The notes: a model not told the origin generated them from the letters alone. Numbered from the stretch's first letter, positions 4,738-41,947 are shown. The stretch: 64,000 bases of DNA from an uncultured bacterium (GCA_943788935.1 CALSSE010000007.1:227871-291870), one strand, 5' to 3'. Translations and numbers: made by a program.

Positions 4738-7080
4738 TCAGTCTTCTGCTTCGGTAGGAGCCTCGCTATTCCCTACGTTTCTCGTTACTCGAACACCAAT
4801 ATTGGCTGAACGTATGCTAGGGCTCATCTCCAATCGATATGTTGAGGTGAGAGTCTCGGGACCGGTATTCCAGCTACCTCCACGGATCACCTTAGAAGCA
4901 GACACTCCAGGGCTAGCAGACCCATCGGTCGGAGTGCTGTTGTAATTGGGTGAATAGCCATCAGCTGTCCACTCCCACACGTTGCCGCCCAGATCACAGA
5001 TCCCTAGAGAGTTATCACCTGCGGGAGAGCGGTCACAAATAGGAGACGTTGAGCCTGCTCCGCAGCCTTGACCAAGGGCGCTATCATCATAACTTGCTTC
5101 AGAACAGGTCGGCGCACCCTCTCCCCACGGATATCTAGCGTCATTACGATTTAAGCGCGCAGCATATTCCCATTCCGCTTCGGTGGGGAGACGGCCACTA
5201 AGGTATTCTGCGACCTCAGTCGCCTCTGCCCAATTGAGCGCGTTGATTGGATGAGCTGCTCGGCCGGGTGTATGCCAATTTGAATCATTACTGATCGGGG
5301 TGTCACAGATATTATCGAGGACACACTGCAGGTATTGAGCGACGCTCACTTCTGCCCTCGCCATCTCAAAAGTGGGCACTCGAACAGGGTGGATCGGGCG
5401 CTCGTTGATACGGTCGCTCCAACCCATAAGGAAGTCTCCACCTCTGACACAGATCCACTCGACATTTGTCTCTTCCACATAGCGGACAATTTCTCCCTCA
5501 TCAGTAGCACCATCACAATCATCATCGATGTCATTGCAGCTCTCTTCCGAGCCTGTTGATGGTGTCGCGTCACAGACGAGCTCACTTCGGTCGCTATCAC
5601 AGCGTAGCGTACTCTCATTGGCACAAGCACCTACGCCAACAGTACAGACCTCACCGACACCCATCGCTTCTTCGTCTAACTGGCCGTCGCAGTCATCATC
5701 GATATCGTTACAGAGCTCTACTTCAGGAGCGATCACTTCGGCGTCACACACGATAGCGGCGCTTGATCCATCGCAAGCGAAGACTCCTTGACTGCGGCAG
5801 AGCCCACGACCAATCGTACAGCCATCACCTACGGTAGAGACCTCCTCATCTACTCGACCATCACAATCGTCATCAACGTTATTACACACCTCCGCGACGG
5901 GTTCACTTGGACTCTGAGAGCAGATCAATTCATGTGCAAGCGTATCACAGGTATAGACACCAAAGCGTGAGCAAGCGCCCACGCCTACTTCACATCCCTC
6001 ACCCGCCCCAAGAGATTCTTCATCAATCTCTCCGTCACAGTCGTCATCAATCCCGTTACAGGCCTCTTGTTGGGGTCTAGTAGGGGTCGCATCACAGATG
6101 AGCACACCGGTCTCATCAGCGCAGATTAATCGCCCTTCCACTGCGCAAGTACCTTGTCCAACCACACAGCTCATCCCAGTGTTTGGGAGCTGTTCATCAG
6201 TACGTCCATCGCAGTCATCATCTCGACCGTTACATGCTTCGGGGGCAGGTGATCCGCCGGTGACACTACAGATAATCCGCTCCTCTAAGGGTTTGCAGAG
6301 AGTGATTCCTTCCTCAAAACAACCACCGACTCCCGATCCACACTCGATCCCCACTCCAATAATATCCTCGTCAATCTCTCCATCACAATCATTATCGAGA
6401 CCATCACAGCGCTCAGAATCAGAGTAGTCTGTTAGACTCTCATAGCTTGGCTCTTGAAAAGCACCATCGACGCATACTTGGTCTAAGCCTTGGCAGACGC
6501 CTAAAATCTTGAGCGCTCGTGGCGCCTCATCGACAAAGCCATCACAGTCATTATCTAGATCATCACAGAGCTCTTGATTATCAGCGTAACCAGTGATTGC
6601 TGCGTAATTAGGGTTTACAAATACGCCGGATGGAGAGCAAATCATTCGACTTCCTCCACAGACCCCACGCTGATTATCTGCGGGAGGTCCTTCATCGACT
6701 ACTCCATCCCCGTCATCATCATCTTGATTACATACTTCTTGAGTGGCAGGAACGCACTCGCCTCCTCTAAACAGGCCTCCGACCACACTGCGTTGACAAA
6801 ACAGTCCACTAGCACATGGTGTTCCGCAACTTTCACAGTTCTCTCGACCGATTTCACTACATCGAGCGTCTAGAGGGAAATCATCCACTCCATTTAATAC
6901 TCCATCCGAGTCAGCGTCCAGGAGCGCACACTCATTATCTTGAGGAGGACATGCAGAGGCAGCCGTAGAATCATTATCTTCTTTATCGTTATTATCGCAA
7001 GCAACGACAAATAGAGCTAATATTAAAGTGATCCCAAACTGTAAAAAAGCACGGGAATACATTAGTTTGTGTACATTCAT
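4738..7080 (-). CDS. Lipoprotein with ~9 MopE-like Cys/Asp-rich putative metal-binding repeats and a C-terminal FGE/SUMF1 domain
   Basis: A lipobox is present (LALFVVAC). The motif C-x-x-[LI]-D-[ND]-D-C-D-G-x-x-D-E recurs ~9 times, e.g. CDGLDNDCDGEIDE and CNGIDDDCDGEIDE. The C-terminal ~260 aa match the FGE-sulfatase domain (GGDFLMGWSDRINERPIHPVRVPTFEMARAEVSVAQY...WEWTADGYSPNY...RGGSWNTGPE). Confidence 0.7.
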   Translation of the reverse strand: MNVHKLMYSRAFLQFGITLILALFVVACDNNDKEDNDSTAASACPPQDNECALLDADSDGVLNGVDDFPLDARCSEIGRENCESCGTPCASGLFCQRSVVGGLFRGGECVPATQEVCNQDDDDGDGVVDEGPPADNQRGVCGGSRMICSPSGVFVNPNYAAITGYADNQELCDDLDNDCDGFVDEAPRALKILGVCQGLDQVCVDGAFQEPSYESLTDYSDSERCDGLDNDCDGEIDEDIIGVGIECGSGVGGCFEEGITLCKPLEERIICSVTGGSPAPEACNGRDDDCDGRTDEQLPNTGMSCVVGQGTCAVEGRLICADETGVLICDATPTRPQQEACNGIDDDCDGEIDEESLGAGEGCEVGVGACSRFGVYTCDTLAHELICSQSPSEPVAEVCNNVDDDCDGRVDEEVSTVGDGCTIGRGLCRSQGVFACDGSSAAIVCDAEVIAPEVELCNDIDDDCDGQLDEEAMGVGEVCTVGVGACANESTLRCDSDRSELVCDATPSTGSEESCNDIDDDCDGATDEGEIVRYVEETNVEWICVRGGDFLMGWSDRINERPIHPVRVPTFEMARAEVSVAQYLQCVLDNICDTPISNDSNWHTPGRAAHPINALNWAEATEVAEYLSGRLPTEAEWEYAARLNRNDARYPWGEGAPTCSEASYDDSALGQGCGAGSTSPICDRSPAGDNSLGICDLGGNVWEWTADGYSPNYNSTPTDGSASPGVSASKVIRGGSWNTGPETLTSTYRLEMSPSIRSANIGVRVTRNVGNSEAPTEAED

Positions 7081-13882: not shown

Positions 13883-14584
13883 ATGGAGATCGATATGCTT
13901 TGCCCTCACATAGTCTCCCGCTCAACTCAATCCAATCGTGCTACGATCGTGGGTTCATTGTTTAGAAAACGTCACTCAGCTGTCAGACACTCAGCTGTCA
14001 GACACTCAGCTGTCAGACTCTGTGCTGTTGACCTCAAAGTCTTTTATCTCGCGGCCTTGTCTTTTGTAGTGTTCTCGCTGATGTCATCGGCCACTGCTGC
14101 ACCGAGCGGTAAGGGGAGAGTGCAGATTGATGACACCTATCACGAGGTGACATGGAGTGATGGCGATAGCTTTAGAATCACTTCCGGCCGAATGAGGGGA
14201 CAGCGGGTCAGGCTCTTGGGATATAATACGCTAGAGAGCTATGGTCCTGTGCATAAGTGGGGAGAGTGGAATGAATGGGCGCTATACCGTCTAGCTAAAG
14301 ACGCCAAGCAAGTCGCAACAAGAGAGACCTGGGAGTGTAAGTCACTAGATATCAAAGATCGATACAGTCGACTTTTAGTAAGGTGCCCAAAGCTGATAGA
14401 GGCGATGATCAATACTGGAATGGGTCATGTCTTTGAGGTCGAGGCTAAACCTGAGGTCAAGCTCTTAATGCTTCAAGCGGATGCCATTAAGAGAAGAGTT
14501 GGTATGTGGAGTCGTGGCGCTCCAACAGGCCTCCTGACGAGCATCCATAGCCACGATGAAAAAGCCTGGTCAACCTGCGTATAA
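13883..14584 (+). CDS. Secreted staphylococcal-nuclease (SNase/thermonuclease)-like nuclease, paralog A
   Basis: It has a signal peptide (LKVFYLAALSFVVFSLMSSATAAP). SNase-like motifs are present: SDGDSFRI...RVRLLGYNTLE and ...RYSRLLVRCP. It is clearly paralogous to ORF 41944-42927. The true start is probably downstream of the annotated ATG. The 5' part contains a 15-bp x3 DNA repeat (HSAVRHSAVRHSAVR). Confidence 0.6.
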   Translation: MEIDMLCPHIVSRSTQSNRATIVGSLFRKRHSAVRHSAVRHSAVRLCAVDLKVFYLAALSFVVFSLMSSATAAPSGKGRVQIDDTYHEVTWSDGDSFRITSGRMRGQRVRLLGYNTLESYGPVHKWGEWNEWALYRLAKDAKQVATRETWECKSLDIKDRYSRLLVRCPKLIEAMINTGMGHVFEVEAKPEVKLLMLQADAIKRRVGMWSRGAPTGLLTSIHSHDEKAWSTCV

Positions 14585-14874
14585 TCGTGTCGCTTCTCTA
14601 AAAACGGGCGAGGCTAAAAAAGCTACTTCATTCCAATACCTACAAGGCCTGTGAGTGGGTCTGTGCTCAGGGCTCATGCCTGCTTTATGTTCCCTATCAA
14701 CAGCGCTACGGAGATGATCGACCTAAGTGTTTACGTTGGAAACGATAGCCGATACGAACTTAGACTATCCGCACGGACTGATTTTAGGTAATATTCTACT
14801 TCTAAAACAGTCACTTTAATATCCATTAATACCCATTAATACCCTTTTATACCCCTTAATATATAGGAAGAACA

Positions 14875-15237
14875 ATGAACAAGACTCTTCTTCAGCAAGA
14901 GGGCGCTCAAGTACGATTTTCGGAGCCCCGTATGATCAATCAGATGAGCTGTTGCCTCTCTCTAGTCGCTCTTTTTCTCAGCGCGCTCGGCGCTTGTAGC
15001 GAATCTGAACCTAACCCTCCAGTGGTTCCACCAATGGCAGGGATGATGGCAGGGACCGAGATGGTCGCTCCTTGTGTGTCCGACTCAGCCTGTGCACCAG
15101 GGACGATCTGTGATGCTGGGTCAGGGACATGTGTACCTGGTCAATGCAGCGCGATGACCCCTTGCCCAGTCAACCAAATGTGTGATCTCAGCACGAGTAC
15201 TTGCAGCTCAGCGATGAATATTGGGGTGCGCCAGTGA
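14875..15237 (+). CDS. N-terminal fragment (lipoprotein signal peptide + Cys-rich module) of the downstream repeat protein, separated from it by a +1 frameshift
   Basis: A lipobox is present (LSALGAC). The motifs CVSDSACAPGTICDAGSGTCVPGQC and ...CPVNQMCDLSTSTC match the start of the next ORF (CASDAECGNGFCVAGTCQNVEC). The stop at 15235 falls where frame 2 opens (15218). Confidence 0.55.
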   Translation: MNKTLLQQEGAQVRFSEPRMINQMSCCLSLVALFLSALGACSESEPNPPVVPPMAGMMAGTEMVAPCVSDSACAPGTICDAGSGTCVPGQCSAMTPCPVNQMCDLSTSTCSSAMNIGVRQ

Positions 15238-17725
15238 CGCAGAATGTGGAAATGGATTTTGTGTAGCGGGAACTTGCCAAAACGTCGAATGCGTTAGAGA
15301 CATGAACTGTCAAGCGGGGCAACGCTGCGATAATATGCGTTGTGTTGCTGACACTAGCTGTATCGACAGTGATGGTGATGGCTATGGGACAAACTGCCCA
15401 GCTGGACCGGACTGTAATGATCGTGATCGAAATGTCAACGCAGGTGCACCGGAGAATGGCACGACGAACTGTGATGACGGAATCGATAATAACTGTGATG
15501 GAACAGATAGCATTTGCGGCTCTGAGGAAGACTTAGATAACGATGGATTCGCAGATAAGGATGGCGACTGTAATGACATGAATCCTAATATTAATCCAGG
15601 GGCTGATGAGATCTATTACAACGATCTAGATGATGATTGTGATCCCCAAACTAATGATGACGATCAAGATGGAGACGGCTTCGCCGCTGAAGCCTCCATG
15701 GGCCCAGACTGCGATGACCTAAATCCCAATATCAACCCTCGCGCTGAGGATATACCTGGCAATGGGGTCGATGAGAACTGTGACGGGATGGATCGAGTCA
15801 TCACCAACGATGATCGAGATGGTGATGGTGTGAGTGAAGTCGATGGCGATTGCGATGATGACAATATAAATGTCTCTCCCAATCGTGAAGAGATCCCCTA
15901 CAACTCTCTCGATGATGATTGTGACCCAAGTACCCGCGATAATGACTTAGACGGTGATGGGTTTGCCGCCCCTCGTGACTGTGAAGACGGAGATGAGATG
16001 ATCAACCCCAATATGGCGGAGATCTTCTACAACGGAACCGATGATGATTGCGATCCACTCACTAAAGATGGTGATGCTGACGGTGATGGCTTTAATGCGA
16101 GGGCTGTAGGAGGCGGTGATTGTAATGATGATGTCGCGAGCGCTAATCCAGATGGCACAGAGGTCGAGTATAATGGGATTGATGATGATTGTGACCCAAG
16201 TACTCGTGATAATGACTTAGACGGTGATGGCTTTAACCGTGATACTGATTGCGACGACAACAATGATAACGTTAACCCTGATATCGTAGAGAATGCCTCC
16301 ACAAATTGTGGGGATAGCGTGGACAACAATTGTATTGGTGGAGACGTCGCCTGTGACGCAAACGCCACTGATAGCGATAATGATGGGATCCCTGATGATC
16401 AAGATTGTGAGCCTCAAAACGCAGCGATCCCTGGGCCAACAGAGATCGCTAACAATAATCTAGACGATGACTGTGACGGTGAAGTTGACAACGTCTGTGT
16501 AGATGATGCCTTCGATATCGCGAATTCAAACAATATACCGGTGAATGCCTCAGCGATCAGTGATAACGACAACAATGAGTCGGGTTTAATCCTCTGCCCT
16601 GGTGATGCCGATTGGTATCAAATTACACTCAACCCCGGTGATGGACTCGAGGTAGATCTCAGCTTCGCGCATGCTGAGGGTGACATCGATGTTCGTCTCT
16701 ATCGACGTAATAACGGAGGGCTCACCGAAGCTGACTTGACCGCTGTGGACTCATCGGTCTCTTCCAATGATAATGAGGTCGTCTATACGGCGCGTGCCAC
16801 AACTCGTGACACATACTTTATAAAAGTATATCAGTTTGGTGCAAACCCCGGCCGGCTCGAATATGGAATGATCGCCAACGTGTTTGAGAACTGTCAAGAT
16901 GATCCGGTAGGCCCGAGCGGAGAACAGAATGATAGCCGCCAAGAGGCTTCAATCATGCCATCATTCGGAGAGAGTCGTCAGATCTGTGACTATGACGATG
17001 ATTGGTACTTCTTTACGCTTACTCGTCAGCAGAATCTCCGACTCGACTTACTCTTCACTCATGCTCAAGGTGACATAGACCTCGCGCTCTATGACCGAGA
17101 CAGCGGTGATCGGATTAAAATAGCGTTGTCATCAACTGATAATGAGATCCTCGAGGAAGAGAATCTCGCCGCTGGTAACTATGCAGCCCGAGTGTACGGA
17201 TTTAATGGTTCTCAGAATGGCTATAAGATCTTCCGATCGAGCGGAAACCTTCAGACTTCAGAGTTCCGAGATAACGATGATTACGAGCTCCCCGATGCAG
17301 AGATGATGCCAGGGGTATATACCACACCTGCCATTAATTTCCCCAACGTACCCTTAGGTTCCGTTGTTCACAAGCTCAAACTTAAGCAGCTCGATATCAA
17401 TCACAGCTGTGTCGGTGATCTTGAAGTTACGATTCTTTGGGACGGTGTCCCTGTTCGTCGGTTATGGAATCGAGATGGTGATAACTGCCTCGACGGGGCT
17501 CTCGATGATGACAGCACCTTTAGCCTCGGTTGTATTGGAGGTGTTGGGGCGGCTTCTTGGAATAGGCGTCTAGGTAATGATATCTGCTTCGAGAACAGAG
17601 ATTATCTTGAGTTTGCAGGACTTGACGCTCAAGGTGATCTCACAGTAGAGATCAAGGACTATACCAATGATAACACGGGTTCATTGGTCAATGTACAGTT
17701 CGATCTAGAGTATTTTATCCCCTGA
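15221..17725 (+). CDS. Large secreted protein with Cys/Asp-rich calcium/metal-binding repeats (TSP3-like DxDxDG plus MopE-like motif), two PPC domains and a C-terminal P-domain-like fold. It has no AUG start and is probably the body of a frameshifted gene beginning at 14875
   Basis: About ten repeats have the form D-x-D-[GN]-DG[FV]...DC[DN]D.NPNINPGA.E..YN..DDDCD. There are two DxDWYxF-type pre-peptidase C-terminal (PPC) domains (ILCPGDADWYQITLNPGDGLEVDL.. and ICDYDDDWYFFTLTRQQNLRLDL..). The C-terminal stretch INHSCVGDLEVTILWDGVPVRRLW.. resembles a proprotein-convertase P-domain. No protease catalytic domain was seen. Confidence 0.6.
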   Translation: MGCASDAECGNGFCVAGTCQNVECVRDMNCQAGQRCDNMRCVADTSCIDSDGDGYGTNCPAGPDCNDRDRNVNAGAPENGTTNCDDGIDNNCDGTDSICGSEEDLDNDGFADKDGDCNDMNPNINPGADEIYYNDLDDDCDPQTNDDDQDGDGFAAEASMGPDCDDLNPNINPRAEDIPGNGVDENCDGMDRVITNDDRDGDGVSEVDGDCDDDNINVSPNREEIPYNSLDDDCDPSTRDNDLDGDGFAAPRDCEDGDEMINPNMAEIFYNGTDDDCDPLTKDGDADGDGFNARAVGGGDCNDDVASANPDGTEVEYNGIDDDCDPSTRDNDLDGDGFNRDTDCDDNNDNVNPDIVENASTNCGDSVDNNCIGGDVACDANATDSDNDGIPDDQDCEPQNAAIPGPTEIANNNLDDDCDGEVDNVCVDDAFDIANSNNIPVNASAISDNDNNESGLILCPGDADWYQITLNPGDGLEVDLSFAHAEGDIDVRLYRRNNGGLTEADLTAVDSSVSSNDNEVVYTARATTRDTYFIKVYQFGANPGRLEYGMIANVFENCQDDPVGPSGEQNDSRQEASIMPSFGESRQICDYDDDWYFFTLTRQQNLRLDLLFTHAQGDIDLALYDRDSGDRIKIALSSTDNEILEEENLAAGNYAARVYGFNGSQNGYKIFRSSGNLQTSEFRDNDDYELPDAEMMPGVYTTPAINFPNVPLGSVVHKLKLKQLDINHSCVGDLEVTILWDGVPVRRLWNRDGDNCLDGALDDDSTFSLGCIGGVGAASWNRRLGNDICFENRDYLEFAGLDAQGDLTVEIKDYTNDNTGSLVNVQFDLEYFIP

Positions 17726-29296: not shown

Positions 29297-30737
29297 ATGG
29301 GTTTATTTGTAAATACTAACGCTTCGGCGTTGAACGCTCAGCGCCAGCTGAACTCTACCTCTAACTCTCTCGGCCGCTCATTCGAGCGTCTCTCTTCAGG
29401 TCTCCGTATCAACGGCGCCAAGGATGACGCTGCTGGCCTCAGCATTACCACTCGCTTCAGCGCTCAGATCCGTGGTCTGAACCAAGCTGTACGTAACAGT
29501 AATGACGGGATCTCTTTGGCGCAGACCGCTGAGGGTGCCCTCAACGAGACCACCAACATCCTTCAGCGTATCCGTGAGCTTGCTGTCCAGTCATCAAATG
29601 ACACCAACAACGACAGCGACCGCGCTTCACTCCAAGCTGAGGTCTCTCAGCTGCAGAGTGAGCTTGACCGCATCGCTGAGACCACAAACTTCAACGGCAA
29701 CAAGGTCCTCGACGGGACCTTCCTCGCCAAGAATATTCAGGTCGGCGCTAACGTCGGTGAGACTCTCAGCGTAAGCATTGACGCTGCGGCGACTAAAGAC
29801 TTGGCTCGCCAAGCACGATATGATGGCACAGAGGTTACAAATGCTGCAATCGCTGGTGGTGGTGACGTCACCATCACTTATAAGGATGCAGCATCTGCTA
29901 CAGGTGAGAGTTCTGCAAATGTGCGCGCAACTAATGACAATGATGATGCCCTCTCTACATCACAAAAGTCTTTCTCTGCGATTTCAAAAGCAGCAGCGAT
30001 TAACAGCTTAAGTGACACCACAGGTGTACGAGCGATCGTAAACGCTACAACTTTGGGTGGTGGAGCAATTGCTGCTGGTAACCTAAGCGCATCTTCATTC
30101 ATTGAGATCAACGGTGAGAAGATCTCAGGCTTTGCGGTTCAAGCAAATGATGCCGACGGAGCTTTGACCGATGCCATCAATGCAGTGTCAGATACTACAG
30201 GTGTTGTCGCTTCACTCGATAGTGACAGCCAACTTGTATTGACAGCGGCGGATGGTCGAAACATCGAAGTTGATATTACAAACGCTACTAATGCTGGTTT
30301 TGCCGCTGATGATGTTCAGCGTGGATCGATCACTCTTCAATCTGATAGCCAGTATGAGCTTGGTGGTGCTGCGATAGCCCGTCATCGGTCACGGACCAGG
30401 GATCTATGGCGTTAACTCGGACAACTCAGTCAAAGAGCTCGACATCAGCACTCGTGATGGCGCTGTTCAAGCTCTTGACACCATCGACCTCGCGCTTGAG
30501 AACGTCTCTTCTTCACGCGCTAAGCTCGGTGCGCTTCAGAATCGTCTCGAGAGCACCATCAACAACCTCAGCACCACCTCTGAGAACTTGAGCGCTTCAC
30601 GGAGCCGCATCCTCGACGCGGACTTCGCTTCTGAGACTGCACAGCTCTCTCGCAACCAGATCATTCAGCAGGCAGGTGTCTCTATCCTCGCTCAGGCTAA
30701 CCAGCAACCGCAGGTCGCGCTCGCGCTCCTCGGTTAA
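29297..30737 (+). CDS. fliC: Flagellin copy 2; the reading frame is broken once (~30376) in the central variable domain
   Basis: The N-terminal 165 aa and C-terminal ~100 aa are near-identical to copies 3-5. ORF 29297-30415 ends ...[18 protein letters not shown] +1 frame read from ~30377 gives [30 protein letters not shown]...LALLG*, ending at 30737. Confidence 0.8.
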
Positions 30738-30806
30738 TGATCGCTTGATTCACTCGGCGTATTCAGCTGCCGCTTAGGCGTGTTGAGCGCTGAGCAGGAT
30801 TATAGA

Positions 30807-30846
30807 AGCCCGTTTGGTATAGCCAAGCGGGCTTTTTGTGTTTTTG
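30807..30846 (+). terminator. Rho-independent terminator after flagellin copy 2
   Basis: The hairpin AGCCCGTTTGG-tatag-CCAAGCGGGCT is followed by TTTTTGTGTTTTT. Confidence 0.75.
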
Positions 30847-30973
30847 GGCCTGTTTCCGGAACACATTGAGGGTGTCTTTAAAATAAAAATTGAATTTTGA
30901 CTTAATGTATCCGATCATGTCGAAGCCATCGATGGCATTGTTCTAAGCCCCATACATATTCAAGGAGTGAATC

Positions 30974-32423
30974 ATGGGTTTATTTGTAAATACTAACGCT
31001 TCGGCGTTAAACGCTCAGCGCCAGCTGAACTCTACCTCTAACTCTCTCGGCCGCTCATTCGAGCGTCTCTCTTCAGGTCTCCGTATCAACGGCGCCAAGG
31101 ATGACGCTGCTGGCCTCAGCATTACCACTCGCTTCAGCGCTCAGATCCGTGGTCTGAACCAAGCGGTACGTAACAGTAATGACGGGATCTCTTTGGCTCA
31201 GACCGCTGAGGGTGCCCTCAACGAGACCACCAACATCCTTCAGCGTATCCGTGAGCTAGCTGTCCAGTCATCAAATGACACCAACAACGACAGCGACCGC
31301 GCTTCACTCCAAGCTGAGGTCTCTCAGCTGCAGAGTGAGCTTGACCGCATCGCTGAGACCACAAACTTCAACGGCAACAAGGTCCTCGACGGGAGCTTCC
31401 TCGCCAAGAACATTCAGGTCGGCGCTAACGTCGGTGAGACTCTCAGCGTAAGCATTGACGCTGCGGCTACCAAAGACTTGGCTCGCCAAGCACGATATGA
31501 TGGCACCGCAGTGTTGACGCGAATGGTATTCGCTGCTGGAGCTGATGTTCCATCACCTACAAAGATGCTTCATCTAGCCTACGGGTGAGAGTTCTGCGAA
31601 TGTCCGCGCAACGGTCTCAGCTGATGATGGCGTGTCTACCACAGGAACACTTTCTCTGCAATCGCCAAGGCTGCAGCCATCAATGATCTCACTGCAACGA
31701 CTGGAGTTCGAGCGATCGTTAACGCGACAACTGTTGACGGTGGTGACAATCGATGCGGGCTCTCTAAACGCATCTGATTACATTGAGATTAATGGCGAGA
31801 AGATCAGCGGCTTTGATGTTCAAGCAAATGACGCAGACGGCGCTCTCACTGATGCCATTAACGCTGTCTCAGACGAGACTGGAGTCGTTGCATCACTCGA
31901 CAGTGATAGTCAACTTGTACTTACCGCTGCTGATGGTCGCAACATTGAAGTGACAATCACCGGTGGTGCTGCTGACGAGACAGGTCTCGCAACAGGAACT
32001 TCTGCGGGTTCTTTGACCTTGCAGTCAAATAACCAGTACCAAATTGGAGGCGCGACCGCTGCTGCCCTAATCGGCCACGGATCAGGCATCTACGGCGTGA
32101 ACTCAGATAGCTCCGTAAAAGAGCTCGACATCAGCACTCGCGCTGGCGCTGTTCAAGCTCTTGACACCATCGATCTCGCGCTTGAGAACGTCTCTTCTTC
32201 ACGCGCTAAGCTCGGTGCGCTTCAGAATCGTCTTGAGAGCACCATCAACAACCTCAGCACCACCTCTGAGAACTTGAGCGCTTCACGGAGCCGCATCCTC
32301 GACGCGGACTTCGCTTCTGAGACTGCACAGCTCTCTCGCAACCAGATCATTCAGCAGGCAGGTGTCTCTATCCTCGCTCAGGCTAATCAGCAACCACAGG
32401 TCGCGCTCGCGCTCCTCGGTTAA
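30974..32423 (+). CDS. fliC: Flagellin copy 3; it has at least three frame disruptions in the variable domain and is a likely pseudogene unless these are assembly errors
   Basis: Segments lie in different frames: 30974-31588 (N-term), a third-frame segment [35 protein letters not shown] around 31640-31760, and 31632-32423 (C-terminus ...QVALALLG). Confidence 0.7.
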
Positions 32424-32489
32424 TGATCGCTTGATTCACTCGGCGTATTCAGCTGCCGCTTAGGCGTGTTGAGCGTTGAGTAGGATCAT

Positions 32490-32532
32490 AGAAGCCCGTT
32501 TGGTATAGCCAAGCGGGCTTTTTGTGTTTTTG
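32490..32532 (+). terminator. Rho-independent terminator after flagellin copy 3
   Basis: The hairpin and T-tract are identical to those at 30807-30846. Confidence 0.75.
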
Positions 32533-32657
32533 GGCCTGTATTAAAAAAATAAAAGACAGTCACTAAAAAAAAATTGATCTTTGTATCAATATGTCCGAAT
32601 ATTAGCATGCCATCGATGGCACTATTTTAAGCCCCATATAAATTCAAGGAGTGAATC

Positions 32658-34164
32658 ATGGGTTTATTCGTAAATACTAACGCTTCGGCGTTGAACGCTC
32701 AGCGCCAGCTGAACTCTACCTCTAACTCTCTCGGCCGCTCATTCGAGCGTCTCTCTTCAGGTCTCCGTATCAACGGCGCCAAAGACGACGCCGCTGGCCT
32801 CAGCATCACGACTCGCTTCAGCGCTCAGATCCGTGGTCTGAACCAAGCGGTACGTAACAGTAATGACGGGATCTCTTTGGCTCAGACCGCCGAGGGTGCG
32901 CTCAACGAGACCACCAACATCCTGCAGCGTATCCGTGAGCTAGCGGTTCAGGCGTCAAATGACACCAACAACGACAGCGACCGCGCTTCACTCCAAGCTG
33001 AGGTCTCTCAGCTTCAGAGTGAGCTTGATCGTATCGCTGACACCACCAATTTCAACGGTAACAAGGTCCTCGACGGTAGCTTCCTCGCCAAGAACATTCA
33101 AGTCGGCGCCAATGTCGGTGAGACACTCAGCGTAAGCATTGACGCAGCAGGCACTAAAGACCTCGCTCGTCAAGCTCGTTATGAGAGTGATACTTTCGTA
33201 AATGACGCAGCCTTCAGCACAGCAGCAAACACCTTCTCAATCTCATCGGCGGATCGAACCAACGGTGTTACTTTTGTAGATGTTCGTGGCACCGTTGACG
33301 CTGATGACGCTTTCTCTACAACGGGTAAAGACTTCTCAGCGATCGCCAAGGCTGCCGCGATCAATGATCTCTCCAACACCACAGGTGTACGAGCGATCGT
33401 TGGTGAAACAGAAGTAGAAGCAGCGGGTGCAGTGGGAGCGGTTACTCTAAACGCTTCTAACTTCGTAACCATCAATGGCGAAAAAATCGCCGGCTTCGCA
33501 TGTCGCGTCGAATGATGCAGATGGGAATCTCTGTCGACGCGATCAACGCTGTCTCTGATGACACAGGTGTCGTGGCTGGGCTCAGCTCAACAGGAGCCTT
33601 AACGCTTACCGCTGCTGATGGTCGTAATATCGCTGTCGAGTTCAGCGGGGCTGCCGTTGCTGATGCTGTAGGATTTGATGGCTTTACTGCAGCAGCCACC
33701 ATCGTTGCGAGTACGGTGCTACAGTGACTGAGTTTGTGGCCACCGCTAAGATCACCCTCCAATCTGATAGTGACTTTGAGATCGAAGTTGGCTCTGCGAG
33801 CACCTTCGCAGGCTTCACTGATGATGGTGTCTACGGAGTGAACTCAGATAATTCTGTGAACACACTCGACATCAGCACTCGCGGTGGCGCTGTGCAAGCT
33901 CTTGACACCATCGACCTCGCGCTTGAGAATGTCTCTTCTTCACGCGCTAAGCTCGGTGCGCTTCAGAACCGCCTCGAGAGCACCATCAACAACCTCAGCA
34001 CCACCTCTGAGAACTTGAGCGCCTCACGGAGCCGTATCCTCGACGCGGACTTCGCCTCTGAGACTGCACAGCTCTCTCGCAACCAGATCATTCAGCAAGC
34101 GGGTGTATCTATCCTCGCTCAGGCTAATCAGCAGCCACAGATCGCGCTCGCGCTCCTCGGTTAA
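32658..34164 (+). CDS. fliC: Flagellin copy 4; it has about three frameshifts in the variable domain
   Basis: The pieces are 32658-33515, 33500-33727 and 33724-34164. Two shifts fall within ~40 bp at ~33490-33530 ([21 protein letters not shown]) and one at ~33710. Confidence 0.7.
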
Positions 34165-34227
34165 TGATCGCTTGATCAACTCAATACACCTAACGGCTGC
34201 TTAGACAGCTGTCGGCGCTGAGTTTGA

Positions 34228-34268
34228 TAACAGGGAAGCTCGCTTGGCTAGGTCAAGCGGGCTTTTTT
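34228..34268 (+). terminator. Rho-independent terminator after flagellin copy 4
   Basis: The hairpin CTCGCTTGG-cta-GGTCAAGCGGGC is followed by TTTTTTTGTTTTT. Confidence 0.65.
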
Positions 34269-34274
34269 TGTTTT

Positions 34275-34355
34275 TGGCCTTTGGCTCTGACTTTGGCTCT
34301 GACTTTGGCTCTGGACTTTGGCTACTGACTTTGACTTTGACTTTGACTTATGACC
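34275..34355. repeat. Tandem repeat CTTTGGCTCTGA / CTTTGA, ~8 units
   Basis: It lies immediately after the terminator of flagellin copy 4. Confidence 0.8.
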
Positions 34356-34478
34356 AGGGCTGATTGGTGAAGGTATCTTGGAGACAAAAATAAATTGAAA
34401 TCTGACGCAAAGTAACCGACACTAGTCAGGCCATCGATGGCATTATTTTAAGCCCCATACAAATTCAAGGAGTGAATC

Positions 34479-35976
34479 ATGGGTTTATTCGTAAATACTA
34501 ACGCTTCCGCGTTAAACGCTCAGCGCCAGCTGAACTCTACCTCTAACTCTCTCGGCCGTTCATTTGAGCGTCTCTCTTCAGGTCTCCGTATCAACGGCGC
34601 CAAGGACGACGCGGCTGGCCTCAGCATCACTACTCGCTTCAGCGCTCAGATCCGTGGTCTGAACCAAGCTGTACGTAACAGTAATGACGGGATCTCTTTG
34701 GCGCAGACCGCCGAGGGTGCGCTCAACGAGACCACCAATATCCTCCAGCGTATCCGTGAGCTAGCGGTTCAGTCGTCAAATGACACCAACAACGACAGCG
34801 ACCGCGCTTCACTCCAAGCTGAGGTCTCTCAGCTCAAGAGTGAGCTTGATCGCATCGCTGAGACCACTAACTTTAACGGTAACAAGGTCCTCGACGGCAC
34901 CTTCCTCGCCAAGGACATCCAAGTGGGCGCCAACGTTGGTGAGACTCTGAGCGTCAGCATCGATGCAGCGGCTACCAAAGATCTCGCGCGCCAAGCTCGC
35001 TACGAAGGCGATTCATTTGTCAGCGCAGCCTCTTTCACAGCAGCAGGCAACTTTGCGCTCTCTCAAGCAGGTACAAACGGCGGTACTTTCGTTGACGTTC
35101 GCGCAACGGTAGCTGCAGATGATGCACTATCTACTACGGGTAAAGATTATTCTGCGATCTCTAAAGCGGCTGCGATCAATGATCTCACAGAGACTACAGG
35201 CGTCCGAGCGATCGTTGGGCCAACAACCGTCGCCGGTACTGCAAATGCAGTAGATGGTATCGCCCTGAACGCGAGTAACTTCTTCGAGATCAATGGTGAG
35301 AAAATCGCCGGCTTCACTGTCGCTGACAATGATGCTGATGGTAACCTCGTTGATGCCATTAACGCTGTGTCTGATGAGACCGGTGTCGTGGCGAGTCTAA
35401 GCGCTAACAGTGAGCTCACCCTCACCGCGGCCGACGGTCGTAACATTGAGCTTACATTTACAGGTGCAAACACTGCAGGAAGCCTCGGTTTTGGTGCAGG
35501 CACTAATGCTGCGCACTGCCGCTGCAGCAACGGTTGTTGCAACTGGTCAGATCACCCTTCAATCAAATGAAGCGTTTGAGATTGATACAGGAAATGCAGG
35601 CTCTTCTACTCTGATTGGCTTTAACACTCAAACAGAAGGAGTCTACGGCGTTAACTCTGAGGAGAGCGTCTATCAGCTCGACATCAGCACTCGCGATGGC
35701 GCTGTTCAAGCTCTTGACACCATCGACCTCGCGCTTGAGAACGTCTCTTCTTCACGCGCTAAGCTCGGTGCGCTTCAGAATCGTCTTGAGAGCACTATCA
35801 ACAATCTCAGCACTACCTCTGAGAACTTGAGCGCTTCACGGAGCCGCATCCTCGACGCGGACTTCGCTTCTGAGACTGCACAGCTCTCTCGCAACCAGAT
35901 CATCCAGCAGGCTGGCGTGTCTATCCTCGCCCAGGCTAATCAGCAACCACAGGTCGCGCTCGCGCTCCTCGGTTAA
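34479..35976 (+). CDS. fliC: Flagellin copy 5; it has one frameshift (~35505) in the variable domain
   Basis: The pieces are 34479-35570 and 35410-35976. Across the junction ...GTNAA|[21 protein letters not shown] is restored by a 1-nt shift. Confidence 0.8.
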
Positions 35977-37092: not shown

Positions 37093-37428
37093 TTATGTGA
37101 TCTCTTCACCACACTCCTCAACGACCCACTGCAGATAAGGCTGATAGGAGTGATCTTCATCGATCTTTAGCGCTAATATCTCGGGTAACTCATAGGGATG
37201 TAGACGCTTGATCTCTTGGACACAACGCTCAAGGACCTCATCACTGACCTTAGCGGTTAAGGTGATCTCTTGATCAATACAAATCTCGCCCTCCCAACGA
37301 TAGACGCTCTTGACAGGGCTTAAAGTGACGCAGGCGGCGAGCCTGCTCTCTATCAGTTGGCGAGCGATCGACTCAGCGTCCTCTTTAGGGAGATTACTGA
37401 TCACCAGGGCGGTAGGGCTTGAGTTCAT
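37093..37428 (-). CDS. cutA: Divalent-cation tolerance protein CutA
   Basis: The CutA1 fold sequence is present: ...LVISNLPKEDAESIARQLIESRLAACVTLSPVKSVYRWEGEI...YELPEILALKID. The track ORF (to 37506) overlaps the pepP end, so the internal Met (MNSSPTALV) is taken as the start. Confidence 0.7.
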   Translation of the reverse strand: MNSSPTALVISNLPKEDAESIARQLIESRLAACVTLSPVKSVYRWEGEICIDQEITLTAKVSDEVLERCVQEIKRLHPYELPEILALKIDEDHSYQPYLQWVVEECGEEIT

Positions 37429-37435
37429 ATTGAGT

Positions 37436-38725
37436 TTAGCCTCGAGCGGCCATGATCGACTCAATCTCATGAATCTCGCGGGGGCAATCAGCGGAGAGCA
37501 CCTCACAGCCGCCTTCGGTCACTAAGATGTCATCCTCGATACGAATTCCGATCTCCTCTTTAGCGATGTAAATCCCCGGCTCGATGGTGATCACCATCCC
37601 GGCGCGGAGGGGTTCACGCTGAAGACCAGAGTCGTGGACATAGAGACCGACAAAGTGGCCTAGGCTGTGAAAGTAATCGTCGGCGTATCCCGCCTCGTCG
37701 ATCACTTGACGAGCGATCTCGTTGAGCTGCGCCCAGGTGACGCCTGGGCGAACCGCCGCTACTGATGCTTTCCACGCGTTAAGGACCACTTGATAGACCT
37801 CGGCTTGTCGAGGAGTAAAGGTGCCGTTGACAGGGAAGGTGCGGGTGATATCAGAGGCATACATCTCGTATTCACAGCCCACATCACAGAGCACTAACTC
37901 ACCGTCTTTCATCACCTTTCGATTTTGACCATAGTGTAAGACACAGCTGTTGAGTCCAGACCCAATGATCGGCGCATAGGCGTTACTGTGACTCCCTTCA
38001 CGTCTAAAGTGACTCTCGAAGACATATTGTAGCTCGGACTCATTCATCTCAGGCTTTACGCTCTGCATGGCTTTCTTAAAGCCCTCTACCGTGATCCCCA
38101 CCGCTCGTCGCATGATATTGATTTCGTCCTCATCATGAACAGAGCGCATACGAGGTAAGAGCTCATGACCATCGCGGATCTTACTGTTTAAAATACGAGC
38201 GCTAGCGTCTCGGAGCACTTGTAGCTGCTTGGGAATGGGAGAGGTGTATCCAACCATCGATCCCAAGTAAACAAGGTCACGTTCTCTTGTATTAAGAATA
38301 GCATCGGTGAGCATTCTTGGTAATAGAGTAGTACGCATAACCTTAGCGATCCCCGTGCCGAGCTCGATAGCGCGACTTAAGATCGGTCGGTTACCGTGCC
38401 AGCGATTATCTTCTACATCGAGAGGGCGTAGGAAGAGGATCTCTTTATATTGTGGATGCTCTGGAGCGAGCAGTAGAGCCGCTCCCCCCTCAAACTCTAG
38501 ACCGGTGAGGTAGAAGAAATCGAGGTCTTGTCGCTGACCATCACCCACATGATCTGCGGCAAAGATCAAGGCGACCCCACTCTCCATCCCCTCCATTAGT
38601 CGTTGACGTCGTAGGCGATAAGTCTCTGCAGGGATAGGACCCGTCGGCGTAGGGATGCCCTCTACGTTGTGAGGGAGAGGTCGCTTAATATTAGGGGTCT
38701 CTAGAGGTCTCTTCGCGTGTTCCAT
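37436..38725 (-). CDS. pepP: Xaa-Pro aminopeptidase (M24B family)
   Basis: M24 metal-ligand motifs are present: VLCDVGCEYEMYASDITRTFPV, HSLGHFVGLYVHD, VITIEPGIY and IRIEDDILVT. Confidence 0.8.
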   Translation of the reverse strand: MEHAKRPLETPNIKRPLPHNVEGIPTPTGPIPAETYRLRRQRLMEGMESGVALIFAADHVGDGQRQDLDFFYLTGLEFEGGAALLLAPEHPQYKEILFLRPLDVEDNRWHGNRPILSRAIELGTGIAKVMRTTLLPRMLTDAILNTRERDLVYLGSMVGYTSPIPKQLQVLRDASARILNSKIRDGHELLPRMRSVHDEDEINIMRRAVGITVEGFKKAMQSVKPEMNESELQYVFESHFRREGSHSNAYAPIIGSGLNSCVLHYGQNRKVMKDGELVLCDVGCEYEMYASDITRTFPVNGTFTPRQAEVYQVVLNAWKASVAAVRPGVTWAQLNEIARQVIDEAGYADDYFHSLGHFVGLYVHDSGLQREPLRAGMVITIEPGIYIAKEEIGIRIEDDILVTEGGCEVLSADCPREIHEIESIMAARG

Positions 38726-38846: not shown

Positions 38847-40577
38847 TCAGAATCGGAACTGGGCGATGAAGCTGAGTTCCTCTTGGACGAGGTTGATAAA
38901 TCTGTCTTCACCACCCATGGCCTCGGTATTATATTGTCCCTTCTCGACGATTCGCTTGTTGTAAACCACCGAGAAAACCCCGATGTCACGATAGTAAAAG
39001 AAGTGAGCGGCTGCGCGATACTGCATCTCATCTCTAGGCTCTCGAACGGTATCAGATGTTGGAACCCCTTTGAAGGGCTCTGCTTGATAGTTGCCAAAGT
39101 CGCCTGCAAGCATGAGGACTTTGGGAATCGCGAGGAAACCTAACTGGGCGTGCCAAGCTGCTTGCTTAGACTCAAAAGCGAGTTCATTCTTCCAATAGTG
39201 CTCTGCGAGGAGGACCATCCGCCGGTAGCGAATCGCTGCCTGGATATTGGTAGAATAAAACTCTTCTTCTTCACGCCTGTCATACTTTCCACCTGCGAGA
39301 ATACCGATGGTGAGAGGAACGGGGACATAGAGGAAGGGTGTATCAAAGCGACTGTAGTAGCCGACAAGATTGATCCCGAGCTGAGCGCCTGCTGACCATG
39401 GGTAATTGAGCGATTGATTACCTAGGCTGCGGCCACCGATATTGCCGTCGAATCGTCCATTACCCCCCGCGCCAAAGACGCGGTAGCGCAGGGTGTTGGT
39501 GTCGTTGAGAGGACCACTGACCTCAACTGCAGCTGAGTTGAACTGCTCAAAAGCTCTAAAGACGTTTGTGCGGCGGACGAGGAGCTGTTTGTGAACCGAG
39601 AGTGCTTGCGCTTGGGAAAGGCCTGCTGCCCCGCTGTTGATCGTCAGCATGTGTCGTGACTTAAAGATCGGAAGACTGAACATCGCAAAGGTCAAACGAG
39701 GCGTCTTCTCAGTGAGCATACTGATCAGATAAAAAGAATTCTCGATCTGGGGGATAGGACCAAAGGTACGAAGCTGTAGCCGTGACACTCGAGTATCATA
39801 GGGAGAATTGTCTGCTTCATCGGCGGCGAGATCTACTTTGTGCATCATCTGTCCGACGATTGAGAAGCGCATGTTTGGTGAACCACGACAGACCTGTACG
39901 CTGCCGTCAAACTGACAACCAGGGTCTTCACAGTCTATCTTGCCGTCATTATCATTATCGATCCCATCTGAGCATAAATAATCATTACGCTCACCGTCTT
40001 GATCTGTCCCTGCGCCGATGAGATCGAGAGGGTCGCCTGAAGACATTTGAGCACCACTGGTGCTCACACTTGAAGAGCTAGACTTGACTGTCGTTGTTGC
40101 GCTAGAAGCGCTCTTTTTTAGCGCAGCATCCCAAGAGCCTTCACAGGCGCTGATCAGCTCAGTTTGGCAGTCTTGATCATCGCAGTCAGTCACGCCATCT
40201 TCATCATTGTCTACCCAGTCGCGGCAGCGCGCATTAGTGTTCTCGGGACGACCATCAGGCTTACATTGAGTGTTCTCTTTGCAATCATTGTCGGCGCAGT
40301 CAGCGACGCTGTCTTTGTCGTTGTCGATCCCATCGCCACAATTAACCTCTTTAGCCTTCTTTGCCTCAGCAATCGATCCCGATGCGCTGAGAGCGACAAA
40401 GCCAAAGAGAAGTGAGAGGGCGAAGAGCATGGAGTGAGCCCTCGCTTGGATGAGTCCTGTATGTGATCGAGTGCTGTTCATCGCAGTTAGCTCGCTTGAT
40501 GTATGTTTTGGAGAGGGGGCGTCGGTGTTTTGACGAAGGAAAGTTAGGGTAGAGTGTTCGAAGTTAAGTAGTCTCAT
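38847..40577 (-). CDS. Outer-membrane protein: N-terminal Cys/Asp-rich metal-binding-like repeats fused to a probable beta-barrel that ends in Phe
   Basis: The repeats include CGDGIDNDKDSVADCADNDC, CRDWVDNDEDGVTDCDDQDC and CSDGIDNDNDGKIDCEDPGC. The C-terminal ~350 aa are Gly/Tyr/Asn-rich with alternating hydrophobics and end ...FIAQFRF. The start overlaps the stop of the upstream gene. Confidence 0.55.
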   Translation of the reverse strand: MRLLNFEHSTLTFLRQNTDAPSPKHTSSELTAMNSTRSHTGLIQARAHSMLFALSLLFGFVALSASGSIAEAKKAKEVNCGDGIDNDKDSVADCADNDCKENTQCKPDGRPENTNARCRDWVDNDEDGVTDCDDQDCQTELISACEGSWDAALKKSASSATTTVKSSSSSVSTSGAQMSSGDPLDLIGAGTDQDGERNDYLCSDGIDNDNDGKIDCEDPGCQFDGSVQVCRGSPNMRFSIVGQMMHKVDLAADEADNSPYDTRVSRLQLRTFGPIPQIENSFYLISMLTEKTPRLTFAMFSLPIFKSRHMLTINSGAAGLSQAQALSVHKQLLVRRTNVFRAFEQFNSAAVEVSGPLNDTNTLRYRVFGAGGNGRFDGNIGGRSLGNQSLNYPWSAGAQLGINLVGYYSRFDTPFLYVPVPLTIGILAGGKYDRREEEEFYSTNIQAAIRYRRMVLLAEHYWKNELAFESKQAAWHAQLGFLAIPKVLMLAGDFGNYQAEPFKGVPTSDTVREPRDEMQYRAAAHFFYYRDIGVFSVVYNKRIVEKGQYNTEAMGGEDRFINLVQEELSFIAQFRF

Positions 40578-41947
40578 TCGCAGACCCTCGGCTGATCATC
40601 ACAGATCGTCACACCGGGGTTATGACTGCAGTCCCAGTCTTCGCAGTCAGTGAAACCGTCACCGTCGTTATCAACTTGGTCATTGCAGCGAGCATTTGCT
40701 TCAGAGAGAGATCCAGCACTCTCCTGACAGACTTTCTTAACCTCTTCATCAGATGATCGACTGCAAGAGTATTCTTCACAATCTGTCTCACCATCATTAT
40801 CGTTGTCGATGCCATCGCTGCAACTCTCAACGGTCGCTTCACAATATGCCTTTACTTCAGGGTCATCGCTACGACTGCAGGAGTAGTCATCACAGTCGGT
40901 GAAGCCATTACGATCATTATCTTTACCGTCGCTGCATTTCTCAAGGCTGACCTCAAGAACAGAGTCGCAATAAGCGACGATTTCTAGATTATCACTCTGG
41001 CTACAAGAATAGTCGCCACAGTCGGTAAAGCCGTTACCATCATTATCCTCTCCATCTTGACACTGCTCTAGGGTGTTCTCACCAAGAGAGTTACAGTAGC
41101 TGACGATGTCTTGGTTATCGCTGCGTGAACAGCTAAAGTCTCCGCAGTCAACGTAGCCGTTGCCGTCGTTATCAATGCCATCTTGACATTGCTCTAGGGT
41201 GCTCTCACTGAGAGATTCGCAATAGCTGACAATCTCGGGATTATCGCTGCGTGAACAGCCAAAATCTCCGCAGTCGACGTAGCCGTTTCCGTCATTATCA
41301 CCGCCATCTTGGCAACGAGCTAAGGTGTTCTCTTCACCTTGTTCAACCTCAGTCGCAGGTTCTTCGCTCGCTGCGCTCTCTAGCATACACTCCTCATCTT
41401 CAGAGTCGATCTTTCCATCACGGTCATTATCGAAGCCATCTGAGCAAAGGTCCTCTCCTGTTTCTCTTGTCAGGCAGACGGTAACGTAGATTCCACGTCG
41501 GCAACCAAAGTCTTCACAGTCAGTGAAGCCATTATCATCATTGTCGATCCCATCACTACAGGTTTCATTAGTGAACTCTCGTCCACAGCACAGCTCAGCG
41601 ATTTTTTGGCATTTACGATCACCACAGTCGTAGTTACCGTCATCGTCATTGTCTTGCCCATCGGTGCAAAGTACGAAGGTGTTCTCTTCCTCGTAGACGG
41701 GATTTAGGGGGACATAGACGCCGCAGAGGGTCGACTTTTGAAGACAACCGGTGTCTGCACAGTCGATCAAACCATCGTTGTCGTTATCAATCCCATCACT
41801 GCAGGATGTATCATCAAACTCATAGCCCATGACTGGGAGAGGCGGTTTCTTAAAGCTCTCGCAGCTTAATAGGCTCAGCGATAGCATCACTAGAGCGATG
41901 AGAGAGAGTGAGCAGCTCAAATGCTCTTTGCATACGTGGCTCATCAT
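40574..41947 (-). CDS. Lipoprotein made almost entirely of Cys/Asp-rich repeats (~40-aa unit x ~8)
   Basis: A lipobox is present (LSLLSC). The repeated unit is C-x-DG-x-DND-x-[ND]G-[YF]-[TV]DC-x-D-[FY]-[GS]C-S-[RQ]-SD-x-x-[EI]-V-x-[AS]-YC. The stop/start overlaps with the neighbouring genes on both sides. Confidence 0.6.
   Translation of the reverse strand: MMSHVCKEHLSCSLSLIALVMLSLSLLSCESFKKPPLPVMGYEFDDTSCSDGIDNDNDGLIDCADTGCLQKSTLCGVYVPLNPVYEEENTFVLCTDGQDNDDDGNYDCGDRKCQKIAELCCGREFTNETCSDGIDNDDNGFTDCEDFGCRRGIYVTVCLTRETGEDLCSDGFDNDRDGKIDSEDEECMLESAASEEPATEVEQGEENTLARCQDGGDNDGNGYVDCGDFGCSRSDNPEIVSYCESLSESTLEQCQDGIDNDGNGYVDCGDFSCSRSDNQDIVSYCNSLGENTLEQCQDGEDNDGNGFTDCGDYSCSQSDNLEIVAYCDSVLEVSLEKCSDGKDNDRNGFTDCDDYSCSRSDDPEVKAYCEATVESCSDGIDNDNDGETDCEEYSCSRSSDEEVKKVCQESAGSLSEANARCNDQVDNDGDGFTDCEDWDCSHNPGVTICDDQPRVCE

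Follow-up and report, generated by a model that had tools for sequence, protein, structure and literature searches.

A strictly conserved nuclease, repeat-lipoprotein and porin operon of Myxococcota and a looser nuclease-MopE pairing in the same stretch of DNA

The window analysed here is a 64,000-nucleotide stretch of DNA from an uncultured bacterium (GCA_943788935.1 CALSSE010000007.1:227871-291870). It carries two genes for proteins resembling staphylococcal nuclease (SNase), nuc1 on the plus strand (locus 1) and nuc2 on the minus strand (locus 2). An earlier sequence-only reading had proposed that each nuclease is followed on its own strand by a large repeat protein, and that the pair is a duplicated and previously undescribed module, possibly a surface-anchored or Ca2+-dependent apparatus for degrading extracellular DNA. 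Locus 2 comprises three genes, nuc2, rep2a and rep2b, with the following features (lengths in amino acids, aa, of the open reading frames, ORFs).

41944-42927, minus strand: nuc2, a Sec-exported SNase-fold nuclease (ORF of 327 aa)
42400-42801, minus strand: SNase domain of nuc2 (about aa 43-176)
41947-42396, minus strand: family-specific, Cys-containing C-terminal domain of nuc2 (aa 178-327)
40574-41947, minus strand: rep2a, a 457-aa lipoprotein with the lipobox LLS-C and about ten acidic double-disulfide repeats
38847-40577, minus strand: rep2b, an outer-membrane porin with a signal peptide (ORF of 576 aa)
39888-40349, minus strand: three acidic double-disulfide repeats of rep2b (aa 77-230)
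38850-39869, minus strand: 16-strand beta-barrel of rep2b (aa 237-576), with the C-terminal end ...AQFRF

The ATGA stop/start overlaps previously noticed at this locus are real, at 41944-41947 between nuc2 and rep2a and at 40574-40577 between rep2a and rep2b. The probable start of nuc2 is M8 at 42906, giving a 320-aa protein (P0001). The ATG of rep2b at 40577 overlaps the rep2a stop, and the true start of this gene may be M33 (40481) or M50. Signal peptides, the lipobox and conserved cysteines, all readable in the sequences, point to an extracytoplasmic location for the three products.

We scanned species-representative genomes for relatives of the nuclease and obtained 404, of which the best 80 were all nuc2-type (44-73% identity). 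Together with 17 metagenome loci these made up a set of 97 nuc2-type loci, whose six-frame ORFs were searched with the window proteins. A rep2a homolog lay directly 3' of the nuclease gene in 88/88 evaluable loci, a rep2b homolog occupied the next position in 72/72, and the barrel domain was found in 69/69. The nuclease stop codon and the rep2a-frame start formed a 4-nucleotide ATGA/GTGA overlap in 45 of 92 loci, and the distance between them was at most 12 nucleotides in 81 of the 92. Carriers include Nannocystaceae (Enhygromyxa, Plesiocystis, Paraliomyxa), Haliangium, Kofleriaceae, Sandaracinaceae, Polyangia and Bradymonadia, with Enhygromyxa salina DSM 15201, Plesiocystis pacifica SIR-1 and Paraliomyxa miuraensis among cultured organisms. 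On the complete 9.29-Mb chromosome OW818691.1, a nuc2-type gene at 6.45 Mb is followed by genes of 486 and 526 aa with overlapping ends.

Order and strand are therefore kept in distant genomes with variable flanks. Clustering of the flanking ORFs of 80 loci revealed no fourth conserved gene: no neighbour family was present in more than 12/80 loci, the best candidate being a Ser/Thr-kinase-like ORF (12/80). We conclude that nuc2-rep2a-rep2b (38847-42927, minus strand) forms a self-contained operon of three genes, found widely in Myxococcota and also in their class Bradymonadia, and the conservation counts support the view of this locus as a functional unit far beyond chance adjacency. The operon also appears to be new, as had been suspected. 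No description of it or of its repeat was found in the literature, and the database labels for all three products are unnamed, "hypothetical" or generic "thermonuclease". PADLOC returned no defence-system match for any of the operon proteins, and a promoter and terminator scan of locus 2 gave no decisive signal.

Some loci show further genes around the operon. In 4/80 loci (for example L041:7936-8667, minus strand) the nuc2-type operon has a gene for a canonical SNase-type nuclease (DGDT ... NTPE) on its upstream side, on the opposite strand in 3 of the 4. Proteins of 1,700-2,200 aa that are rich in DxDxDG or carry cadherin/Big_9 repeats are encoded directly 3' of rep2b in L156:13881-20528, L165:7828-14511 and L167:7685-12772; such very large proteins occur in some loci and are no general feature. 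In the window, a homolog of the divalent-ion-tolerance protein CutA1 (37093-37506, minus strand) is encoded on the operon's strand, two genes 3' of it and past a gene for an M24 aminopeptidase, and is not among the recurrent neighbour clusters of the other loci.

The two nucleases are paralogs, as had been claimed for the ORFs at 13883-14584 (plus strand) and 41944-42927 (minus strand), with 38% identity over 169 aa (E 3e-39). Their proposed membership of the SNase family is likewise supported: against the Pfam SNase model (PF00565, gathering cutoff 21 bits) nuc1 scored 26.4 bits and nuc2 19.2 bits, just under the cutoff, and a PDB profile search matched thermonuclease (E 3e-4). The OB-type SNase fold was recovered, the best structural match being the SNase enzyme itself at 24% identity. 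Two subfamilies can be distinguished, one of about 320 aa that is operon-linked (nuc2-type) and one of 240-280 aa that is mostly solitary (nuc1-type). In an alignment of 50 sequences from both subfamilies, the nuc2 residues D57, G58, D59, R74, N79, E82, Y125 and R127 are invariant. The catalytic register was set by the Pfam profile, in which S. aureus nuclease 33-142 corresponds to positions 1-107 and nuc2 74-175 to positions 3-106, and the D57-G-D59-S motif lies upstream of the profile-aligned region. A register from hhalign (nuclease family against the SNase sequence, 82% probability) was dropped in favour of the Pfam coordinates, its N-terminal half being mis-registered. The resulting correspondences are as follows.

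nuc2 D57-G-D59-S: SNase Asp19-Gly-Asp21-Thr
nuc2 R74: SNase Arg35
nuc2 N79: position of SNase Asp40
nuc2 T80: SNase Thr41
nuc2 E82: SNase Glu43
nuc2 Y125 and R127: SNase Tyr85 and Arg87

Judged from these alignments, the catalytic Arg/Glu/Arg triad and one Ca2+ ligand, the equivalent of Asp21, are intact in the nuc2 family. Disulfides probably stabilise the enzyme. Compared with staphylococcal (micrococcal) nuclease and thermonuclease (PF00565, COG1525 YncB), the family differs in having Asn in place of Asp40, two additional cysteines in the SNase domain, and an added C-terminal domain of 60-150 residues with four conserved Cys and conserved His/Glu. This last domain is restricted to the family: in a search of 1.8 billion proteins it was found exclusively behind SNase domains, and it had no match among PDB structures.

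The SNase-like protein might nevertheless not be primarily a nuclease, in which case the operon could be a Ca2+-dependent structural or cation-handling system of the envelope, made of a porin with Ca2+-binding periplasmic modules and an OB-fold binding protein. The equivalents of Arg35, Glu43, Arg87, Asp21 and Tyr85 are invariant in both subfamilies (36-78% identity), which is the pattern of an active enzyme, and SNase itself is the top structural match. We consider this alternative fairly improbable.

The repeats of the other two proteins belong to one recognized type. Against the NF033662 model (acidic double-disulfide repeat, cutoff 41 bits), rep2a scored 262.8 bits in 10 stretches and rep2b 99.9 bits in 3 stretches. 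The modules of rep2a are 38-42 residues long, and their number varies from about 2 to 15 among orthologs. In a HMMER search, the family profile of rep2b matched the C-rich domain of teneurin-4 as crystallised in 7PLP (E 8e-7). The teneurin domain binds three Ca2+ ions in that structure, through ligands E835, D840, D843, N844, D845, D847, D851, D854 and D856 (PDB 7PLP; Meijer et al. 2022, PMC9058538), and the rep2b family consensus matches all nine of these side-chain positions. The two kinds of module share the pattern E-x-x-C-x-D-x-x-D-N-D-x-D-x-x-x-D-C-x-D-x-D-C. The teneurin domain has six Cys in three disulfides (1-3, 2-5, 4-6), whereas the bacterial repeats have four, equivalent to Cys 1, 2, 3 and 5, such that disulfides 1-3 and 2-5 have counterparts. 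Teneurin, a metazoan adhesion protein, contains a single C-rich copy, while the locus 2 lipoprotein and porin contain 3-10 copies in tandem. In rep2a the D856-equivalent is frequently not acidic, and because of this its repeats may lack the third Ca2+ site. Homology to the teneurin C-rich domain thus backs a role of the locus 2 repeats as predicted Ca2+-binding modules, and with it, at this locus, the Ca2+ link proposed earlier for the apparatus.

The composition of rep2a (25% Asp+Glu, 9.4% Cys and 5.7% Lys+Arg) also allows a different explanation, in which this extremely acidic protein, its translation coupled to that of the nuclease, mimics DNA and serves as an inhibitor or chaperone, keeping a periplasmic nuclease inactive until release, and the operon is a nuclease/anti-nuclease pair. 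Secreted nucleases with dedicated inhibitors are known, such as NucA/NuiA of Anabaena. However, the repeats match a Ca2+-binding fold in which the acidic residues are metal ligands, leaving the charge largely neutralised when the protein is metal-loaded. The fusion of the same repeats to a porin would be unexplained, as would the variation in repeat number between orthologs, and there is no genome in the periplasm to protect. This makes an inhibitor or chaperone quite improbable.

The gene at 38847-40577 had been listed as a repeat protein. The three repeats are present, with a Ser-rich linker between repeats 2 and 3, but the product is mainly a porin with a 16-strand barrel (aa 237-576). The barrel, which was recognized as a 16-strand porin barrel, most resembles the phosphate porin OprP; identity to OprP/OprO of Pseudomonas (PDB 2o4v) is 12%. 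Unlike OprP, rep2b is extended at its N-terminus by about 190 residues that include the predicted Ca2+-binding repeats. By analogy to other 16-strand porins, this N-terminus should be periplasmic. A role of the barrel in protein export was also considered and is unlikely, because TpsB and usher barrels score far below classical porins.

We propose, at a little less than even confidence, that locus 2 encodes a unit that works at the outer membrane and scavenges nucleic acids in a Ca2+-dependent manner. The three proteins would act together there: nuc2 would cut DNA or RNA released by prey or present in the environment, the repeat modules would hold Ca2+ and/or tether the nuclease and the lipoprotein to the porin, and the OprP-like, anion-type porin would pass the phosphorylated products. 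Surface anchoring and extracellular DNA degradation, both part of the sequence-only reading, are inferences and not supported findings.

Several observations weigh against this proposal. Besides the slightly sub-threshold Pfam SNase score of nuc2, no Pfam porin family, including Porin_O_P, was detected at E <= 1 in rep2b of the window or in any of 46 homologs, and the conserved charges of the rep2b barrel are mixed, with about 15 basic and 11 acidic residues. The Asp40 Ca2+ ligand of SNase is Asn in every member of both nuclease subfamilies (N79 in nuc2, N115 in nuc1), and because of this substitution metal dependence or activity may deviate from that of SNase. Finally, if all three proteins are periplasmic, there is no evident route by which a polymeric substrate would reach the nuclease.

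Extracellular or periplasmic nuclease systems that serve the use of extracellular DNA as a nutrient include Dns/Xds of Vibrio cholerae, EddAB of Pseudomonas aeruginosa and ExeM/ExeS of Shewanella. The scavenging proposed for locus 2 follows the same logic, in that the phosphorylated products of an exported nuclease must cross the outer membrane, and the nuclease folds in most of them differ from that of locus 2. To our knowledge, no operon for any of them also encodes a porin of its own and a Ca2+-repeat lipoprotein. We put forward only as speculation, and as unlikely in its full form, a reading of locus 2 as a "DNA utilisation locus", an outer-membrane machine not described before in predatory or saprophytic Myxococcota. 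In it, a Ca2+-dependent nuclease, tethered by modules of the teneurin C-rich type to a dedicated anion porin, would couple nucleic-acid hydrolysis directly to uptake, and the C-rich domain of metazoan teneurins would derive from the tandem bacterial modules.

Among bacteria, Myxococcota rank as major predators and decomposers, but how they obtain nucleic acids from their prey is poorly defined. Locus 2 offers a concrete, testable candidate for an uptake route coupled to a nuclease; the unit is present in all evaluable nuc2-type loci, which span several Myxococcota orders, and cultured carriers are available. The uncharacterised NF033662 repeat gains a structural homolog and a functional hypothesis, Ca2+ binding, and its link to the C-rich domain of teneurins is relevant to the bacterial ancestry proposed for those proteins. 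Overall, the operon is a robust conserved unit built from known kinds of parts and apparently undescribed, for which the suggested function is plausible.

Locus 1 consists of two genes on the plus strand, given here with frame-corrected lengths.

13883-14747, plus strand: nuc1, a short-type SNase-fold nuclease (287 aa)
14875-17725, plus strand: rep1, a lipoprotein (949 aa)

Neither gene is uninterrupted in the window. The end previously assigned to nuc1, the stop at 14584, does not hold: the gene is broken by +1 insertions in the A-runs 14559-14563 and 14616-14621, and beyond that stop the other two frames carry motifs that align with the C-terminal domain of nuc2. Taking one A out of each run restores the 287-aa protein with its stop at 14747, which matches P0121, from the independent ENA contig L002, at 100% identity from end to end. 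The region 14875-17725, taken earlier as a single ORF, consists in the window of two ORFs in different frames (14875-15237 and 15221-17725), split by one extra base at about 15220-15226. Relatives have a single rep1 ORF of 958-974 aa measured stop to stop, called as a 964-aa gene in L003/L004, and TARA contigs with a 78%-identical ortholog contain unsplit genes of 245 and 964 aa. In a DNA alignment, L002, at about 98-99% identity when indels are set aside, has none of the three extra bases.

Four tandem flagellin genes elsewhere in the window (29297-35976, plus strand), themselves notable in a Myxococcota-like genome, are each broken in two, with Flagellin_N in one part and Flagellin_C/IN in the other, read in different frames.

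29297-30415 and 30378-30737, plus strand: pieces of the first flagellin gene
30974-31588 and 31578-32423, plus strand: pieces of the second
32658-33515 and 33679-34164, plus strand: pieces of the third
34479-35570 and 35410-35976, plus strand: pieces of the fourth

Because the flagellin genes are also split and the near-identical strain is intact, the locus 1 frameshifts are more likely assembly or polishing errors, with both genes intact in reality; for the same reasons, genuine pseudogenisation is the less likely explanation. Homopolymer frameshifts of this kind in the window assembly would mislead annotation.

Locus 1 also contains short repeats and indels. The long N-terminal region of nuc1 contains a perfect, in-frame 15-nucleotide tandem repeat (CACTCAGCTGTCAGA, 3.1 copies, 13973-14018) that encodes HSAVR three times; L002 is longer here by about 30 nucleotides (two units). 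A 10-nucleotide tandem repeat (TTAATACCCA, 4.6 copies, 14816-14861), located just 5' of the rep1 start codon, could be a regulatory or phase-variation element. Within rep1, an 18-nucleotide in-frame indel (ACCGAGATGGTCGCTCCT, about 15040-15060) is present in the window and absent in L002, and is real strain-level variation beside the frameshift sites.

The rep1 protein comprises Cys-rich N-terminal repeats, at least six MopE-type PF11617 motifs, two PPC domains and a C-terminal domain. It is an ordinary Myxococcota surface or secreted protein of the MopE-motif (PF11617) and PPC kind, unusual only for its nuc1-type neighbour. It matched PF11617 (cutoff 27 bits) with 113.9 bits in six stretches; the comparison with this family that had been suggested for the repeat proteins thus gave a match for rep1 and none for rep2a or rep2b.

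The nuc1 subfamily is widespread (293 matches). A rep1 homolog directly 3' of nuc1 is limited to close relatives, namely L003/L004 (78% nuclease identity) and L087 (58%). Two further clades have a PF11617 protein encoded immediately upstream of the nuclease in the same orientation, at a spacing of -3 to +1 nucleotides, and sometimes a second one lies convergently downstream. In total, a MopE neighbour was present in 6/22 nuc1-type loci that could be evaluated on both sides, in three clades and with variable order and strand. MopE-type proteins, confirmed as PF11617, were enriched beside nuc1-type genes, accounting for 14/116 adjacent and 5/238 non-adjacent ORFs (Fisher p 2e-4). A second DxDxDG-rich protein, of 780 aa, is encoded in the window itself (4738-7080, minus strand), and its TARA ortholog has a weak PF11617 match and an FGE-sulfatase domain. 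The presence of this second protein shows that MopE-type proteins are a common background in this genome.

For locus 1, then, the placement of nuc1 beside a MopE/PPC lipoprotein could be fortuitous synteny without any functional link, and we give this explanation serious weight, though somewhat short of an even chance. A directly 3' rep1 homolog occurs only at 58% nuclease identity or more, where the whole neighbourhood is syntenic; 16/22 evaluable nuc1-type loci have no MopE neighbour, against a background in which such proteins are common; and nuc1 and rep1 are 127 nucleotides apart with the 10-nucleotide tandem repeat between them. The statistical enrichment of MopE neighbours and the operon-like abutment in the two other clades argue for a link. 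The nuc1-MopE association is thus recurrent in a few clades and is not a conserved operon. Conservation of the pairing across related genomes, as checked here, therefore applies to locus 2, where it extends to all evaluable loci, and fails for nuc1-MopE. One locus is a strictly conserved operon, and the other is a loose, lineage-restricted pairing.

These differences bear on the duplicated module. The nucleases are paralogous, an Asp/Cys-rich extracytoplasmic protein follows each of them as described in the sequence-only reading, and MopE-type proteins are enriched beside nuc1-type genes, as might be expected if a single ancestral nuclease and repeat-protein module had been duplicated to give two paralogous copies of one apparatus. 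However, the partners belong to different repeat families. Just as rep2a and rep2b failed to match PF11617, rep1 had no match to the NF033662 model, and a profile-profile comparison of the two repeat alignments (hhalign) aligned 8 residues, the DxDxDG loop, at a probability of 5.6%. By these comparisons, the repeats of rep1 and those of rep2a/rep2b appear non-homologous, sharing only that loop. Locus 1 has no porin gene, and the adjacency of nuc1 and MopE genes is partial and variable in order and strand. On the complete chromosome of the distant genome OW818691.1, a nuc1-type gene is solitary at 0.39 Mb, about 6 Mb from the nuc2-type gene, which has both partners. From this arrangement we conclude that nuc1 and nuc2 are old paralogs with different genomic habits and not the result of a recent module duplication. 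With differing partner families, old paralogs and unequal conservation, the duplicated module is not borne out, and we regard it as very improbable.

Elsewhere in the window, a gene at 54167-55387 (minus strand) encodes a metallo-beta-lactamase domain with ComEA-like helix-hairpin-helix motifs (Lactamase_B and HHH_3), and its product may be another DNA-binding or DNA-processing protein of the envelope.

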